Shown: positions 42,101-48,100 of the stretch, piece after piece | Position numbering within the stretch: position 1 is the first letter of the stretch | Layout of the letters: each line of letters starts with the position of its first letter | Source of the DNA: Candidatus Hydrogenedentota bacterium | Lineage (GTDB): Bacteria > Hydrogenedentota > Hydrogenedentia > Hydrogenedentales > SLHB01 | DNA length: 64,000 nucleotides | Assembly (NCBI GenBank): GCA_963745075.1 | Contig: CAVUWV010000001.1 | Span: forward strand, 96,001 to 160,000 | Reading direction: 5' to 3' | Position numbers: made by a program

Positions 42101-45100
42101 GCGGCGTACACGTGGTCGCCACTCGTTGCCAACGCGAGCACACCTGCCGCGGGAAGCCCGTCTACGCTTTTCCACGGCCGTTTCCCCTCCTGGACCAGTC
42201 CCGCGTCCGTGCCCGCCAGCAACGTGCCGTCCGGCAGCAACGCGACCGCGCGAAAACCGTCCGTTTCAGACCTCAACGCCGCGTCCCCGTGCATTTCCTG
42301 CGGGTATACACCCACCTCGACGCTCGGTGCAGACTCGGCCAACGCCACCCCAATCATCAGGGGCACGCAAAGAACTATCAAAACAGCCGTTGCCAGGGGC
42401 ATCTTCTTCACAGCGGGATCCTTTCCAGCGGTAGGTTCAAAAGTCGGTCCTTCGACGATAGCCCGTCCGGCGCGGCTTGTCAACGATTGACGCCCAGTCG
42501 TGTCGTACGGAGCGCATCCCACTCTGAACGCGCTTACGCGAATGGCTCGCGGACGGCAAAGCATCAATTGCCAATCCAAAAAAGAGTACACTCGCTACAA
42601 AACACCGAAGGACGTAGCATATGGCGCTGACCTCCAGGGATAGACTTCTCGCCACACTTTCCATGGCCGGCCGTGTAGCCCCGCCCCGTTTCGAGAACGA
42701 GTTCTCCGACGGCGTCATCGAATTGTGGCGAAGCCAGGGCTTCCTCGATGAGCGGCCCGTAGAAGAGCGATTCGGCCTGGACCGGTGCGAAACCGTGCCC
42801 ATCGAGTGGGGTCGCCTGGACAATAATGCGGTCGTTCAAACTGAAGCCGGTCTCGAACCGTTCCTGCGCCAATATGACGCCTCAAGACCGACACGGTTCC
42901 CGGAAGACTGGGACCAACTTGTCGCATCCTGGCGCGCACGGGACTACGCCCTCCGTGCAGCACCCTGGAGCGAAGGACTGTTTCAGGTCATGGGCGTAAG
43001 CAACGGGGTCACATTCAATCGCGCGATGTTCGTTCTCCGTGAACAACCCCGGCTGGTCGAAGCGCTCATGGACCGCTACGCCGATTTCCTCGAAACGTTG
43101 ATCCCCCGCGTCCTCGCGACGGTACCGATCGACTACGCCCTCTTTTATGAACCCATCGCGTGGACGCGCGCGCCCGTGATTTCACCGGAGGACTACGCAC
43201 GTTTCGCACTGCCGGCGCTGCGCCGGGTCATCGCCGCGCTCGACACCTGCGGAGTCGAACACCGCATCCTGAGGGCCACGGGAGAAGTGCGGCCACTCAT
43301 CCCCCTGTGGCTCGACGCCGGCATCAATGGACTCATGATCAACCAGATCGCCGCCACCGGAATTCACTACCCCGCCCTGCGCCGCGAATTCGGACGCGAC
43401 CTGCGCCTTCTCGGCGGCATCGACTGGCGCGCCGTCGTCGAAGGTCCCGCCGCGATCGACCAAGCGCTGGACGAAGCAGTGCTACCCCTCCTGGACGAAG
43501 GCGGCTACATCCCCCATTTAGACGATACCGTCCGCGTCACCTGCCCCTTCGACCACTTCAACTACTACCGCGATCGCCTCAACAAACTGATCGCGGAAAT
43601 GGAGCAGTAAAGCCTGGGAACACCATACCCAGGTCCGCGTGCCCCTCTACCTGTTCGTGCGAGCAATCTTCCAGAACCGAGAACTTGCGAACGGGTGGGG
43701 GAAGGACCCCCGTCGAAAGTTCAAGACGGAGAATCCCCCCGCGACCCGCCGATCAGGACTGAAAGTCCGAAACATGATAGCCCAGCGCGGCATAGCCGCA
43801 ACCAAAAGTGAGGAGATGAATGGCGTTTCCCCTTTGCAGATACAATAGGTATCCGCAGTGGTCTAACACGAGAAGGAGAAACGCCATGCTTGAGTTTATG
43901 CAGAAGTACCGGGATAAAGCCAGTTCGATTCTGAGCGGTTTTGATCGAATCGTCTTTCGAGGGCTTTTGCGGTCTATAGTCCATCCAGACGGCATGAAAA
44001 GGCACTTGTCGCGGTGTGACGTTCCCCGCCGCAACTTCGGAGCCCATGTGGAGGAGACGACCAAGAAACTGAAAAAGGCCTCGTTGGCTCAGGCTGAACA
44101 TCTGGATAGACCGGTCATCTACGTGCAATCGAGTCAAACCCGTAAGGAGACTATCGCCAGACAGGTACTCGCGGAGAATCCCGTCGATTCCGGTTTGCTG
44201 TGCGTGCTTTCTTGTGTGGAGCCCTGCATGACCTACGAGATGTATCGCAATCGGGAGGCCAAGAAACTGGAACTCGTCTATCGTCTGCGTAAGTGTCTCC
44301 ACTTGTATCATTACTACGTCGATCCTCTGTTCGGCTTCATGCATGCCCGCATCCAAACCTGGTATCCCTTTCACGTCCAAGTCTGTGTGAATGGACGGGA
44401 ATGGCTGGCTCGGCGAATGGATGCCGAAGGTTGCAAATACATCCGCTACGAGAACAGTTTCCCGCATCTAGAGGACCCGGAGCGCGCCCAGCAATTGCTC
44501 GATGAACTGGTCCGTCTCAACTGGACCGAAACCCTTCACGAAATCGCCGCGCGGTTGAATCCTGCGCATCAAGAGATCCTCGGTCCCTATGCCCGCTACT
44601 ACTGGACCGCTCACCAAACCGAATGGGCCACGGACATCACGTTTACCTCGGCCCAAGACCTCCAAGATATCTATCCTCAACTTGTCTGGGGCGCCATCAC
44701 CACCTTTTCCACACGGCATGTCATGCGCTTTTTGGGCAAACAATTCCAACGCCACTTTGCCGGCGAAGTCCAGAGCCATTATCACGACCGTCTCGACGGC
44801 CTCTCCGTCAAACATGCCGTCAACAACAATTCCGTCAAGATGTATGACAAAGGGGCCCAAATCCTTCGCATCGAAACCACCATCAACAACCCCCACGACA
44901 TCCCGGTCTACCGGCCCAAGGAAGGCGGTGACCCCAAAGACTTGGCTCACCGTTCCATGCGCAAAGGCGTAGCCGATCTCGAACGGCGCACGCAGGTCTC
45001 TCAACGCGCCAACGAACGCTACCTCGAAGCCCTGACACCATTCGATACCTCCACTCCCTTGGCACAACTCCTCGCCCCCGTCACCAAAAGGGTCACCAAA

Positions 45101-48100
45101 AAAGGAACGACCTATCGCGGCCTGCGGCCTTGGGCACACCAAGACCTCGAACTTCTGCAAACCATCAACAAACCCGAGTTTCTCATCGCAGGCTTCCGCA
45201 ACAAGGACCTGTCCGCCATCCTTTATCCCAAGGATCAGGGCGACCTCCGTGCCCGACGCGCCGCCTCCGGTCGCGTCTCCTATCGCCTACGGCTTCTCCG
45301 AGCCCACGGTCTTATTGCCAAAACATCACGCACCCGTCGCTACCAAATCACCACCAAAGGAACTCAACTATGCGCAGCCATACTCATGGCCCAACACGCA
45401 ACTATCCAACAACTTACCCCCAAGGCCGCTTAGACAAATGCGAAAGTTTTTTACGATGTTTGCGGTTAGGGACCCAGGGCAAGCGAAGCGCCGCCCTGGG
45501 TCTCAAGGTCCCCCCAAACACCAAGCGCTGAAAGTGCGAAACATTCTTGGTGCCTTCCACCCACTCGGCATACCCTTCCACGGCTCGTTCAATCCGCAAT
45601 TCACGCGAACACGTTGCACCTTCCCCAAACCGCAACTATACTGACCCCCAACCGACAGCAATTGCACCTCACCGCGTCAGGAGCGCCAAACCAATGCTAC
45701 TCCGCACCCGCCTTACCTGCCTCATCCTCAGTTTCACCGCCCTCGCTCTGGCCGCCTCGGCCCAAGACGCCGACCAAGCCGACTTTCCCTCCCGCGAGGC
45801 ACCGTTGGGGGAACGCATCGCGCGGTTCGACGAGATCCTCCGCGCGCGGCATTGGAACGAAGGCCTGGTGCAGACCGGGGTCATCTTTCCGCCGGCGGGG
45901 GAGAAGCGACCCGTCACGGGCAATCACGAGGACGTGTGCGGGCGGACCGCCGTGCTGCTGGCCGCCTATTCCCATCGCTATGCCGTCACCCAGGACCCGA
46001 AAGACCGCAAACTCGCCGACGGCATCATGGATGGCATCCTCAAACTCGAACGCGTGACCGGCGTGCCGGGCCTCGTCGCGCGCGGATTCTACAAGACGAA
46101 GAAACCGTTGTGGCACGAGAAGGCCTATTTCTTCGCCAACGAGTGGCACGACTCAACGTCCATGCCCGGCTACCGGTGGGTGGGCGATCTGAGCAGCGAC
46201 AAATTCACGGACCTCTTCTACGGCGTTGGCACCTATTGGGAAATCTGCGCTGACCAGAAACACCGGAAGATCGCCGAGGACTTTCTCGACCGGTTCGTCG
46301 GGCGGTGTCTCGATTACAATTTCAAGTTGGTTGACCTCGACGGCAAGATGACGCTATGGGGTAACTTCTGTCCCGACCTGCCCCACGAGAACCTGAATGC
46401 GCTCGAAATGCTCGCGGGACTGAAAACCGTCTACCGCATGACCGCGAAAGAACGCTACCGCGCCGCGTATAACAAGCTGATTACGACCTACCACTACGAC
46501 GACGAAGCCATTATGGCCAAGACGCTCTGGCCCGAGGAGTGGGCCGTGCCGTGGGACGACAACCTCGCCGCGAAATCCTACTGGATGCTCATGCGCTACG
46601 AAACCGATCCCACGCTCCTCACCAAGTACCGCATGGCGCTCAACCGCCATCTCTTCTCGTGGAAACGGCTCGACTTCGGTTACGGCGCGGTGCCCTACTA
46701 TTTCATGCTCTACCAAGTGTTGACCGGCGAGAAGGTTGTCAACGACAAGGTCCTCGCCGAAATCAACGCCATGTATCCGGGCAGCCGCGCAACGAGAACT
46801 TTTACCGTACCGACGCCCGACGGTCCGAAGCGCGTCGAATCCGTCGAAGAGGAAATCAACGTCGACACGATTCGCAACTACTGGTTCGCGCGGCAATACG
46901 GGTTCGTCGACGCGTCGCAACCCTTGCCGGAACCGCAGATCGGGACCTCTCCCTGGAAACAGGCCCATCCCCAACCCTCGGATACGCCCCAACCACCCGA
47001 AGGCATGGTATACGTCCCCGCCGGACCCTTCATCATGGGGAGCAACTTCGGCGATACCGACGAGTCGCCGCAACACCTTGCCACGACCGGCGCATTCTTC
47101 ATCGACACCTACGAAGTGGGCAACGCCGACTTCAAGAAGTTCGATCCCAGCTACACCTACCCCGAAGGCAAAGACAACTTCCCCGCCGTCGTGACCTGGG
47201 AACAGGCGAACGCCTACGCCAAGTGGGCCGGCAAACGGTTGCCGACCGAAGCCGAGTGGGAGAAAGCCGCCCGCGGCATCGACGGACGCTTGTATCCCTG
47301 GGGCAACACCTACGACCCCACCTTCATTGCCTATGACGATTCGATCGGCCGCGGCGAAACCATCGCCAAACCCACCAGTCCCTACGGCTGCTTCGACATG
47401 GCCGGCGGCGCCTACGAGTGGACCTCAAGCTGGTACCAACCCTATCCCGGCAACACCGTCTCCTGCGACGAGTACGGCGAGAAAAACAAAGTCATGCGTG
47501 GCGGCTCCAATTTCAACGACCTCGCCATGATGCGCACCTCGCACCGCTACTATCTTCCGCCCAACACCACCGGCAACTACCACACCGGTTTCCGTTGCGT
47601 GAAGGATGTGAAATAGAGGGGAGAAGATTCGACTCAGATTTCGTCGTCGATTTCGAGGTAGTGCATCCATGCCTGGCTGCGAAGCACGTCACGAACAAAG
47701 GCGACTTCGTCGGCGGTAAGGTCGCCTTCGACCAGGGCATCGTAAAACGCGGACCAGTCGAAATAGAGCACGGAGACGTTTTCGCCGGCGATGACCGTCG
47801 CGATGCGACGCCAATCGTCTTCGAGGTGGAACTGCTGCATCTCGCCGAGCAGGGCGGGGGCTTGAACGGTCGTGGCAAAGCCGTCGGATTTCCGGACCGT
47901 GACTTCGCCATTGAGCAAGACGTAGCCATCGTTGGAGGACCGGTCGCCTTCTTCGTATAAGGTGGTTTCGGGATCCAGGTTCGAGAAGGTGGATACCCGG
48001 AGCAAGGTCGCCGCGACGCGGTCGCGCAGATGGTCGGGCAGTTCCAGTAGCACCGACAAGTCTTTGATGCGATCCTCGTGGCCCATGGCGACACTCTCTC

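Follow-up and report, generated by a model that had tools for sequence, protein, structure and literature searches.

A six-copy 1.7-kb element in a Candidatus Hydrogenedentota genome as a probable insertion sequence with a Rep_trans-like protein fold

The genome of a Candidatus Hydrogenedentota bacterium (assembly GCA_963745075.1) carries six near-identical copies of a small single-gene element, one of which lies in the window analysed here, i.e. the 64,000-nucleotide stretch of contig CAVUWV010000001.1 from position 96,001 to 160,000. We consider it fairly likely that the element is an autonomous member of an undescribed insertion-sequence family with a Rep_trans-like tyrosine nuclease as its transposase, which would cut and rejoin single strands at N^NCAG (^ marks the point of nicking or insertion). 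The element family is very widespread among bacteria. New here are its family-wide ends, the clean insertion without target duplication, the ORF-less miniature elements and a covarying stem that hides the ribosome binding site (RBS). A new site-specific insertion-sequence family had been proposed in a genome-wide survey's note, and the proposal is supported by an element that is multi-copy, single-gene, specific in site and orientation and matched by no IS-transposase model. Its undescribed status was judged against Pfam, NCBIfam, PHROGs, PADLOC and the open-access literature.

A blastn search with window positions 43400-45900 against the 36-contig genome returned six copies that are 99.65-100% identical over 1,699-1,722 bp, at the same places at which the survey had located them. 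The survey's length of 1,712 bp was too long, because it takes in REP flank, to which all variation among the copies at the outermost 10 (left) and 3 (right) positions belongs; the core common to all six copies, and hence the element proper, is 1,692 bp. This core is identical in the copies on contigs C1, C8, C10 and C15. The C24 copy has one change in it, D364N, and the C14 copy has two, D364N and a TAG codon in place of Q451, the latter being the in-frame stop that had been reported before; the shared D364N marks the C24 and C14 copies as a sub-lineage. Since CCCAG stands on both sides of the element, its start could be any of positions 43781-43786, and the rotation starting at 43782 was chosen because it matches the unambiguous ends of relatives, giving the most likely span listed in Table 1. 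The gene occupies 91% of the element and is the sole ORF of the right strand and size. Nearly the same element (at most 44 differences in 1,701 nt) was found with other flanks in soil and groundwater metagenome contigs, and in metagenome run X2 the element has a depth of 21 versus 4-7 for at least four left and at least three right junction contigs. The near-identical copies here and the other flanks in metagenomes suggest that the element has been mobile recently, and from these sequence comparisons we infer transposition.

Table 1. Features of the element and of its insertion site, in window positions
Feature	Position	Strand	Description
Left part of interrupted REP	43756..43781	+	Hairpin 1 GGACTGAAAGTCC at 43756-43768, spacer AACATGATAG, C before the insertion point
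Insertion element proper (most likely span)	43782..45473	+	1,692 bp; reads CCAGCGCGGC...GCGGTTAGGGAC; six copies; ends aligned with those of the G069 element and metagenome relatives
Left end	43782..43810	+	CCAG-C, 5-bp hairpin GCGGC-ATA-GCCGC (43787-43799), then AACCAAAAGTG
Long-range 5' UTR stem	43820..43888	+	ATGGCGTTTCC pairs with GGAGAAACGCCAT; covers Shine-Dalgarno and start codon
Gene for the 515-aa protein P0001	43886..45433	+	
Right end	45434..45473	+	Imperfect A/T-rich palindrome downstream of the stop codon, followed by GCGGTTAGGGAC at 45462-45473, matching the family motif GGTTAGTAGT
Right part of interrupted REP	45474..45546	+	CCAGGGCAAGCGAAGCGCCGCCCTGGG = hairpin 2; spacer; hairpin 3 GCGCTGAAAGTGCG at 45525-45538

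The two ends are asymmetric and conserved, and both are kept in relatives over 29-100% protein identity. Family-wide, the left end has the form C^NNAG-C-hairpin-AACCAAA and the right end the form GGTTAGTAGT^ACAG. The motif NNAG-C-GCGGC(C)-loop-(G)GCCGC-AACCAAA was recovered in 62 of 80 metagenome loci, and a perfect stem of at least 5 bp, with variable loops, is present in 51 of the 65 anchored loci. DNA folding predicts this left-end hairpin on both strands, and the left boundary of the element lies 5 nt 5' of it. A hairpin at the right end is unsupported, as the folds were no better than those of shuffled sequences (mean z -0.41; 9 of 39 loci below -1). ORF-less miniature elements with the same ends also occur in this genome, one of them at the same REP position.

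Five of the six copies sit at the same nucleotide and in the same orientation inside a three-hairpin REP, with flanks that read ..ACATGnnAGCCCAG/CGCGGC...GGGACCCAG/GGCAA(C)GCCCTGGG (slashes divide flank from element); the C10 copy comes within 3 nt of the end of its contig, and 15 nt of its left flank are visible. Comparison of the flanks bears out the survey's single insertion nucleotide in the middle hairpin for these five copies and its placing of the C24 copy outside a REP, where the flanks are TAAACCCAG/...CCCAG/GGGATG. The empty sites that it had described elsewhere in the genome were also recovered, the exact uninterrupted middle hairpin being present in nine copies. The REP family gave 34 nhmmer matches at E<=1e-3, half-REPs beside the element copies included, and the REP amounts to roughly 30 copies in the genome. 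As CCCAGGG occurs 901 times (both strands counted) and the REP family is small, five insertions in the REP are not due to chance. The layout of the left REP part is the same in uninterrupted REPs and at the other four REP-borne copies, and hairpin 2 of the right part is completed by the element's last C at 45473. Within the REP, which is RAYT-associated, the target preferred in this genome lies in the middle hairpin, on its 5' arm; three RAYT (PF01797) genes are bracketed by inverted copies of the same REP family. The C10 copy adjoins a RAYT gene.

The insertion point itself would most likely be C^CCAGGG, one base upstream of the CCCAG^ given in the survey, because relatives place the left terminus at CCAG. 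The survey's wording that the element inserts into REP hairpins holds for this genome and not for the family, the target of which is a short C^NCAG-like site in any short repeat that the host offers; the target repeats of relatives include non-hairpin CACGGA or CACAGAG arrays. In relatives the insertion takes place without target duplication, and this is cleanest in a complete related genome (G069), in which a relative with 37% protein identity has five full copies, all of them at one position and in one orientation of a 168-copy repeat. The filled sites there read ACCACGGAnnnC/CTAGAG...GTAGT/ACGGAnnnCACGGA and their uninterrupted twins ACCACGGAnnnCACGGA; the target is C^ACGRA for all five, and the form expected if AC were duplicated or element-borne has zero occurrences in G069. 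Among metagenome loci that show both ends, all 27 have a C immediately before the element. In 13 of these 27 the four bases with which the element starts are not the four that follow its right end, which excludes a general target duplication of 4-5 bp. By themselves, the six copies of the present genome are compatible with a 5-bp duplication, with CCCAG flanking both sides.

Searches with P0001 gave three Pfam rows, all at E>=0.11 and none near the cut-off, and no NCBIfam family at E<=10, in line with the survey, which had reported no match to Pfam, NCBIfam or IS-transposase models. No transposase Pfam was seen for 42 family members among the best 25 of the 31 families that they matched at E<=1, and searches of Pfam, NCBIfam, PHROGs and PADLOC revealed neither a transposase nor another catalytic family. 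Against PDB sequences, a 42-member profile returned two winged-helix rows alone (E 0.075 and 0.14). Homologues are numerous: 7,877 of 8,000 scored database proteins matched at E<=1e-3 (the count obtained in the survey as well), being unnamed or 'hypothetical' and mostly on contigs of 1.6-2.9 kb, and 5,907 50%-clusters matched at E<=1e-3 and 765 at E<=1e-30, against 5,903 and 757 in the survey. Within the phylum, matches at E<=1e-3 occur in 27 of 135 genomes, and in about 13 of these they are near full length; of the five same-genus genomes, one has short remnants and none a full copy. These counts differ from those of the survey (16 of 131 and 0 of 5). The family has no match in 50,697 phage records, its plasmid matches are integrated single genes in large plasmids, and no description of it was found in the open-access full-text literature.

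The predicted models are confident (pLDDT 92) and divide P0001 into a TBP-like double domain (residues 1-389) and a MarR-like winged helix (389-515). On structure comparison, Rep_trans initiators were the only enzyme-type matches to the whole N-domain, and the fold was not RNase-H/RuvC-like; the TBP-like/Rep_trans-like double domain and C-terminal winged helix described in the survey are borne out by these matches. BFVD yielded seven matches at E<=1e-3 and a further one, A0A345MNV4 (E 5e-3, probability 0.97), which is named an inovirus Rep_trans initiator in a passage of PMC13107129. Seventeen residues are invariant in the family (D20, R21, G26, G103, E112, Y141, Y143, G150, P161, N169, L174, N190, E246, N315, Y320, R328 and E330), including three tyrosines and four acidic residues, and all the polar ones lie on beta strands of the model. 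Excerpts of PMC13107129 give D46, D142 and E214 as the acidic metal ligands of RepDE, place the catalytic tyrosine in motif III (YxxK), and describe for RepDE and RepSNJ2 an order in which one acidic residue lies on the first strand and another on the opening strand of repeat 2, followed by Tyr and then Glu. In the model, the strand residues of P0001 follow this order with D20, E246/D250 (D250 nearly invariant), Y320, which sits in K-M-Y-D-K, and E330. Y320, matched by residue order alone, is the prime candidate for the counterpart of the Rep_trans catalytic tyrosine.

As judged from the models, the relation to Rep_trans is structural only, with Pfam HMMs and profile-profile comparison negative. 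PF02486 (Rep_trans) gave no row for P0001 at E<=10, was absent from the best 25 of 31 families (E<=1) matched by the 42 relatives and had no match in the genome at E<=0.01 (Bacillus subtilis control positive), and hhalign returned a probability of 0.1% for the family profile compared with a RepC alignment, itself shallow (81-93% identity). PF25227 (DUF7845) had no row for P0001, none among the best 25 of 31 families for the 42 relatives and no match in the genome (Haloferax volcanii control positive). The Rep_trans initiators and MOBT relaxases (PF02486: pT181 RepC, pC221 RepD/RepDE 4CWC, RepSTK1 4CIJ) nevertheless appear to share with P0001 the double-domain fold, an invariant beta-strand tyrosine followed by a lysine, conserved acidic residues in the same order and, as we propose for P0001, a DNA hairpin beside the site of action; Rep_trans-type chemistry is a probable way for P0001 to work. 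In contrast to them, P0001 has no detectable sequence relation to the group, is ~200 residues longer with large helical inserts and the fused winged helix, has the motif YxK instead of YxxK, belongs to a chromosomal insertion sequence rather than a plasmid, phage or ICE, and would nick 5 nt outside the hairpin rather than in the loop. A pT181-type 'nick in the loop' was found inapplicable since the loop of the left-end hairpin varies. Rep-Arvir/DUF7845 proteins, as passages of PMC13107129 describe them, likewise join a TBP-fold nuclease at the N-terminus to a MarR-like winged helix, hit the same kinds of proteins in structure searches (viral TBPs and the inovirus Rep_trans protein A0A345MNV4) and are exclusive to archaea and tied to replicons (viruses, plasmids and ICEs), whereas the P0001 family is bacterial and IS-borne and the PF25227 HMM is silent.

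In the mechanism that we propose, the 515-aa protein would be the transposase, i.e. a TBP-like double-domain tyrosine nuclease whose fused MarR-like winged helix probably reads the conserved end sequences. It would make single-strand nicks immediately 5' of an NCAG-like tetranucleotide, both at the two element junctions (C^CCAG-C-hairpin on the left, ..GGGAC^CCAGGG on the right) and in the target (C^CCAGGG). The 5' ends would be held on a tyrosine, with Y320 preferred and the also invariant Y141 and Y143 as further candidates, and the 3'-OH ends would be exchanged, so that the element, by copy-out or cut-out, would leave and enter as a single strand or circle and the target would not be duplicated. 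Such movement would resemble that of IS200/IS605 or IS91, which use an unrelated HUH enzyme. IS200/IS605 (HUH Y1) and IS91 (HUH Y2) elements are small, lack true terminal inverted repeats at their asymmetric ends, bear a left subterminal hairpin, and insert at a short specific site in one orientation with no target duplication. With the same traits of ends, hairpin, site and duplication, they are functional analogues of the P0001 element. P0001 is, however, not an HUH protein (neither PF01797, with 16 matches in the genome that all lie outside P0001, nor another HUH model matches it) and is three to four times larger than IS200 TnpA; most of the conserved target bases are on the 3' side of the insertion point, unlike those of both groups, and of the subterminal hairpins that IS200/IS605 has at both ends, the left one has a counterpart in 51 of 65 loci and the right one none that the folds support (mean z -0.41).

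Among REP-associated systems, IS110/IS1111 elements in REPs (e.g. ISPpu9, PMC12288879; seekRNA, PMC11187229) resemble the P0001 element in fixed orientation, lack of the usual duplication and a site for each lineage. They have a DEDD transposase and a long non-coding region for a guide RNA, whereas P0001 is without a DEDD domain by Pfam, NCBIfam and fold and has a ~100-nt 5' UTR. The target repeat here is a RAYT-associated REP (REP/REPIN-RAYT systems: PMC3116915 and PMC3333891), but the REP is a landing site outside the element and P0001 is unrelated to RAYTs.

An integrating rolling-circle mini-replicon, in which P0001 would be the Rep of a 1.7-kb episome with its origin in the left-end hairpin and chromosomal copies would arise by strand transfer into nick-site look-alikes, is an unlikely alternative. 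Replication initiators are its nearest relatives by structure, Rep-Arvir proteins, which combine the same TBP fold and MarR-like winged helix, drive autonomous replication according to a passage of PMC13107129, and most database members lie on contigs of about element length; those short contigs that are checkable, however, end in host flank or repeat without wrapping round, and the only right-end/left-end junctions found join two different elements (loci L056 and L078). All copies in this genome and in G069 are chromosomal and within repeats, the phage records hold no match, the plasmid matches are integrated genes, and 1.7 kb holds no second-strand origin or other replicon gene. We regard as quite improbable an already named IS family (e.g. 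of the ISNCY group), possibly with DDE chemistry, whose transposase the models missed. Our novelty comparison covers the open-access literature, not ISfinder or TnCentral, which leaves some room for it. NCBIfam holds models for ISfinder families, and against this reading stand the 0 NCBIfam families at E<=10, the lack of a transposase Pfam in the 42 members (among the best 25 of 31 families), a fold that is not RNase-H-like, the absence of target duplication in relatives, and a family that is 'hypothetical' in its sources and without description in the open-access full text. The lack of a matching Pfam or NCBIfam model, the non-RNase-H fold and the lack of a fixed-length duplication in relatives speak against a DDE insertion sequence.

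Homing, in which P0001 would cleave unoccupied REPs as a site-specific endonuclease and the element would be copied in from an occupied REP by repair via shared flanks, would account for the repeat flank common to five of the six copies (at least 15 nt on the left and at least 14 nt on the right) and for the repeats that relatives also target. It is very improbable, as the C24 copy has just CCCAG..GG(G) in common with the others, such flanks are very short for recombinational repair, and terminal sequences are needless for homing, yet both ends are kept family-wide over very different targets and the ORF-less miniatures retain exactly these ends. That P0001 is a passenger DNA-binding regulator, the element being moved in trans by another enzyme such as the RAYT of the occupied REPs, is highly improbable too. 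In its favour, 'ArsR family transcriptional regulator' is the name of a homologue in a RefSeq plasmid record, P0001 ends in a winged helix of the MarR/ArsR type, and the genome has RAYT genes between copies of the same REP family, one of them beside the C10 copy; but the gene is 91% of the element and its only suitable ORF, the ends co-vary with the protein across phyla and in hosts whose target repeats are quite unlike one another, the element is bounded within a REP hairpin and not around whole REPs as expected of a RAYT substrate, and a regulator leaves unexplained a 389-residue domain with 17 invariant residues.

The 5' UTR of the gene, ~100 nt long, is filled by the end motif and the RBS-masking stem (Table 1), which, as the predicted folds suggest, probably serves translational control. 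When the UTRs of 32 relatives were folded as RNA, 15.5 of their last 22 nt were paired on average, versus 10.5 once the upstream part had been shuffled, and the two arms of the stem covary between relatives.

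A blastn search of window 43400-45900 against the 6.8-Mb assembly recovered six copies of the element at exactly the contig coordinates listed in the genome-wide survey's note, with 99.65-100% identity. The length of 1,712 bp given there stood only in part. Copy-to-copy differences in positions 1-10 and 1710-1712 of the 1,712 bp are all flank and, with the flanks compared side by side, this length proved to include repeat sequence common to the insertion sites; the shared core is 1,692 bp. The core is identical in the C1 (the window's), C8, C10 and C15 copies, named by contig. 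The C24 copy has one base change in the core (D364N), and the C14 copy, for which an in-frame TAG had been claimed, indeed has two, D364N and Q451 to TAG; the shared D364N makes these two copies a sub-lineage. Five copies have the junctions ..ACATGnnAGCCCAG/CGCGGC...TTAGGGACCCAG/GGCAA(C)GCCCTGGG (slashes mark junctions) and the C24 copy has TAAACCCAG/.../GGGATG. Judged on this assembly alone, a 5-bp duplication of CCCAG is formally possible.

The ends of the family were compared in relatives. In G069, a complete genome of the same order, an element of ~1.83 kb whose protein is 37% identical to P0001, the protein of the window's element, occurs in five copies with 99.6-99.8% identity, all in one orientation and in one repeat. 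The filled sites read ACCACGGAnnnC/CTAGAGCAGCC...GGATAGTAGT/ACGGAnnnCACGGA and uninterrupted copies of the repeat read ACCACGGAnnnCACGGAnnnCACGGA, two of them carrying the exact spacers of two filled sites. The sequence ACCACGRANNNCACGRA has 168 copies in G069 as compared to 2 for the reversed control, and the form expected if AC were duplicated or element-borne has none in the whole genome. The filled and uninterrupted twins, together with this zero count, therefore place the insertion unambiguously between C and A, without target duplication. The 168-copy repeat on G069:C1, the landing site of the G069 element, consists of three direct CACGRA units (ACCACGRAnnnCACGRAnnnCACGRA) and is often found as inverted pairs with 20-40 nt between them, which is REPIN-like.

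Among 80 metagenome loci, the left end NNAG-C-GCGGC(C)-loop-(G)GCCGC-AACCAAA is kept in 62, with NNAG variants ACAG (20), CTAG (10), TTAG (4), ATAG (4) and CCAG (2); 51 of the 65 anchored loci show a perfect stem (5 bp or longer) whose loop varies. The right end reads GGTTAGTAGT. In the 53 loci anchored there, AC comes next in 35 and then AG in 34; some of the anchors with 2 mismatches are false. The base preceding the element is C in all 27 loci holding both ends. The first four bases of the element and the four after its right end are equal in 14 of these 27 (all ACAG) and unlike in 13, hence a duplication of 4-5 bp is not the rule. Many of the metagenome flanks are CACAGAGnnn arrays, and reconstructed empty sites restore their period. 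The relative on plasmid pOLGA1, at 29% protein identity, keeps the ends as well (left C/CTAAGCCGG..CCGGAACCAAAC, right ..TTAGCGACT). A right-end hairpin was considered for the element and dropped. When aligned to the ends of its relatives, the element is most consistent with CCAGC-GCGGC-ATA-GCCGC-AACCAAAAGTG ... GCGGTTAGGGAC, inserted at C^CCAGGG; the left CCAG would then be the element's own NNAG and the right CCAG would belong to the REP.

The sequence interrupted in the assembly under study is a three-hairpin repeat, the intact and exact middle hairpin of which is present in 9 copies; nhmmer gave 34 matches to the repeat at E<=1e-3, a count that includes half-repeats beside element copies. 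As the heptamer CCCAGGG occurs 901 times in this genome, the choice of one repeat, one nucleotide and one orientation is far from chance. Three Y1_Tnp (RAYT-type) genes each lie between inverted copies of this repeat (see table), which identifies the target as a genuine RAYT-associated REP, and the C10 element copy lies in the REP adjoining one of them. The left flank of the window's copy had no DNA match in five same-genus genomes, and no orthologous empty site was found there. All 20 listed sequencing runs are contigs; the contigs of the four examined (X1, X2, X6 and X17) lack the flanks of the window's copy and hence showed no empty site, joint or circle junction.

Locations of the element, its gene and related features (window, contigs of the assembly under study, or loci of relatives)
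Feature	Location	Strand	Remarks
Element	window 43782-45473		boundaries most consistent with the ends of relatives
5' UTR long-range stem	window 43820-43888		
ORF	window 43886-45433		515 aa
Metatranscriptome contig matches	window 45031-45327		
Y1_Tnp gene	C1:342972-343301		
Y1_Tnp gene	C10:502343-502675		in-frame TAG; ~150 bp from C10 element copy
Y1_Tnp gene	C31:13141-13476		
Miniature element	~C14:268636-268920		same position in diverged REP: ..CAAGTCAGC/CCAGCGCGGCGTAGCCGCAACCAAAT...CCGGGTAGGGAC/CCAAGG...
Miniature element	C10:322219-322533		
Miniature element	C13:59243-59630		
Miniature element	C28 around 76046	minus	type ACAG...TAGTAGTAT; flanks unlike
Abutting or near ends	L056:2297-2330		
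Abutting or near ends	L078:1832-1875		
Abutting or near ends	L116:10-110		
P0001 homologue (L117)	plasmid pOLGA1, NZ_CP014580.1:252808-254322		Paraburkholderia (cultivable); between two cytochrome c genes

The genome also has ORF-less miniature elements of ~190-400 bp with the family left end (NNAG-C-hairpin-AACCAAA) and a right end of ..TAGGGAC or ..TAGTAGTAT; a AACCAAATYCGAAATCCGAAGCACGAAAT segment is common to six of them at 80-90% identity. These are probably non-autonomous derivatives, and their family ends further support a transposon with cis-acting ends.

The single gene of the element encodes 515 aa. A longer frame of 537 aa was rejected, its start lying upstream of both the conserved N-terminus of the family and the good Shine-Dalgarno sequence. 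In the 5' UTR, the Shine-Dalgarno sequence and the start codon pair with a segment further upstream to form a long-range stem whose arms covary in relatives; across 32 UTRs, a mean of 15.5 of the final 22 nt are paired as compared to 10.5 in controls. Insertion sequences are commonly controlled by such masking of the ribosome-binding site. A scan for sigma-70 promoters found no site within the element. A groundwater metatranscriptome library yielded two 151-nt contigs that each match the ORF with a single mismatch. They hint weakly at transcription and fall short of proof; DNA may be present in this RNA library.

The survey's note had found no known family for P0001, and this was borne out: Pfam gave only three rows, all at chance level (E>=0.11), and NCBIfam gave no family. 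PADLOC gave no family for P0001, the sole match in PHROGs was a winged-helix regulator (E 1e-4), and the 30 look-alike clusters in the ESM Atlas are all 'hypothetical'. Across 42 diverse relatives, the recurrent Pfam matches were weak winged-helix models only (HVO_A0261_N in 14, HTH_45 in 11), and the family profile retrieved winged-helix rows alone from PDB sequences (E 0.075 and 0.14). The family is huge and, as in the note, unnamed, with 7,877 of 8,000 scored proteins at E<=1e-3, mostly on contigs of 1.6-2.9 kb, and 5,907 clusters at 50% identity reaching the same threshold. Relatives made up 593 of 600 metagenome stretches matched by a pattern scan, for which a 10-sequence alignment was used, the 42-sequence alignment being too diverse. 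The spread of the family within its own phylum is patchy. Of 135 genomes, 27 have a match, ~13 of them near-full-length copies, and one of five same-genus genomes has remnants only. Distant homologues with 22-29% identity reside on plasmids of Paraburkholderia, Burkholderia, Caballeronia, Rhodococcus and Mycobacterium, annotated as 'hypothetical' or 'ArsR family transcriptional regulator'; for the pOLGA1 homologue this second label probably stems from the winged helix. No match to the family was found in 50,697 phage records. We conclude that the element is real: a recently active insertion sequence from a family that is very large and undescribed.

AlphaFold modelled P0001 with high confidence, the whole protein at pLDDT 92.4 and residues 1-390 alone at pLDDT 92.0 and pTM 0.90. 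Structural matches to the TBP-like N-domain were counted as whole-domain when they ran along the full domain, with ~175 or more aligned residues. Foldseek against PDB, run with the whole protein and with the N-domain, returned no match at E<=1e-3 in either case; 4cij had the highest probability (0.72-0.84, E above 1e-3), and the top rows (HMG-CoA reductase and others) were discarded at TM below 0.25. Predicted viral structures gave seven matches at E<=1e-3 and a further one, A0A345MNV4, at E 5e-3 and probability 0.97; viral TBPs were also matched. In the accessible part of PMC13107129 (2026), A0A345MNV4 is an inovirus Rep_trans initiator, and the same pattern of structural matches is reported for the archaeal Rep-Arvir (DUF7845) initiators, a family described there as exclusive to archaea. 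As far as that text describes it, Rep-Arvir resembles P0001 in joining a TBP-fold nuclease to a MarR-like winged helix.

In the 42-sequence alignment 17 residues are invariant, mostly on beta strands, and all invariant polar ones are on strands: D20 on the first strand, E112, Y141 and Y143 in repeat 1, E246 on the first strand of repeat 2 along with D250 (at least 90% of sequences), Y320 in K-M-Y-D-K, and R328 and E330 on the next strand. The accessible part of PMC13107129 gives D46, D142, the catalytic Tyr and E214 for RepDE and E25, D207, Y283 and E303 for RepSNJ2, so that P0001 has the same order of acidic, acidic, Tyr and Glu, a mapping by order only. The PF02486 (Rep_trans) and PF25227 (DUF7845) HMMs matched neither P0001 nor its genome, whereas control genomes do match, and hhalign against the RepC alignment, itself shallow, gave a probability of 0.1%. 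In view of this negative result, no weight was given to the by-eye likeness of GFDRIVFRG/SFDAMTIVG, KMYDK/RIYNK and LRIETTI/WRVEIEL. P0001 is most probably a transposase of a type so far unlinked to transposition.

The data fit an enzyme that reads what lies 3' of the cut, N^NCAG, in both junctions (left and right) and in the target, and they likewise fit an exchange of strands without staggered cuts. This is the tyrosine-nuclease single-strand logic of IS200/IS605 and IS91, here carried by a Rep_trans-like fold. Y141, Y143 and Y320, invariant and on the sheet of the saddle, leave room for a two-nucleophile scheme. The cut strand, the formation of a single-stranded circle and the retention of the donor are steps that we infer, and the winged helix may bind AACCAAA and TTAG as candidate sequences.

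Other origins were weighed. An integrating rolling-circle mini-replicon is unlikely; there is no indication of a free form. Both the C24 site and the conserved ends contradict homing by repair, which is a very improbable account. We give equally little credence to the view that P0001 is a passenger regulator and that the RAYT or some other enzyme moves the element; this would explain neither the large conserved N-domain nor why the ends co-vary with a P0001-type protein in hosts that have other repeats. That the family has already been named is also quite improbable. Full-text searches of the literature gave no description of it, and all sources call the protein hypothetical. An IS110-type guide-RNA mechanism was rejected: a DEDD enzyme is absent, and the end motif and the ribosome-binding-site-masking stem fill the short UTR.

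Insertion sequences are sorted by the chemistry and fold of their transposases (DDE, DEDD, HUH, serine, tyrosine recombinase and Cas1), and HUH Reps are linked to the IS91, IS200 and Helitron transposons. A small site-specific insertion sequence without target duplication is of a known kind; the enzyme lineage and end architecture are new. We place at roughly even odds the joint reading that the element is the founding example of a new mechanistic transposase class, in which the second, non-HUH lineage of rolling-circle nucleases (TBP fold, Rep_trans superfamily) also gave rise to insertion sequences; that this unnamed family, with 5,900 or more clusters at 50% identity, is one of the more abundant insertion-sequence families of environmental bacteria; that the enzyme may cut and rejoin single strands at N^NCAG with several tyrosines (Y141, Y143 and Y320) of a single DNA-binding saddle; and that it preferentially colonises REP/REPIN-type repeats, competing for or exploiting the same structured DNA as RAYTs. 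If true, a TBP/Rep_trans-fold family would add a transposase class, and a second family of rolling-circle initiators would mirror the link of HUH Reps to IS91, IS200 and Helitrons. Naming the family would mend thousands of annotations ('hypothetical' or wrongly 'ArsR regulator') and the family would account for many 1.7-kb contig breaks in metagenome assemblies. With insertion at a short site that is exact, free of duplication and fixed in orientation, the enzyme is a candidate tool for cutting and joining single strands of DNA. The homologues on plasmids of cultivable Paraburkholderia, Burkholderia, Rhodococcus and Mycobacterium make the hypothesis directly testable.

The same element is present in other contexts in soil and groundwater metagenome contigs; in run X2 it has 44 differences in 1,701 nt and a depth of 21 versus 4-7 for several different junction contigs. 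A right end adjoining the left end of another element, or solo left ends near full copies, were seen at the relatives' loci L003, L056, L078 and L116. At the last three, a right end abuts or lies at most 9 nt from the left end of a different member, and tandem left ends occur. Abutting ends are expected if the left junction C/NNAG resembles the target, and suggest that this junction is itself a target look-alike. At L003 (G003:C233), a full element in the same kind of REP hairpin as the window's copy encodes a protein 68% identical to P0001; less than 400 bp upstream of it are a solo right end (..TTAGGGACCCAG/GGTCAGCGAAGCGCCACCC) and another left-end motif. The locus looks like a hotspot with decayed ends.
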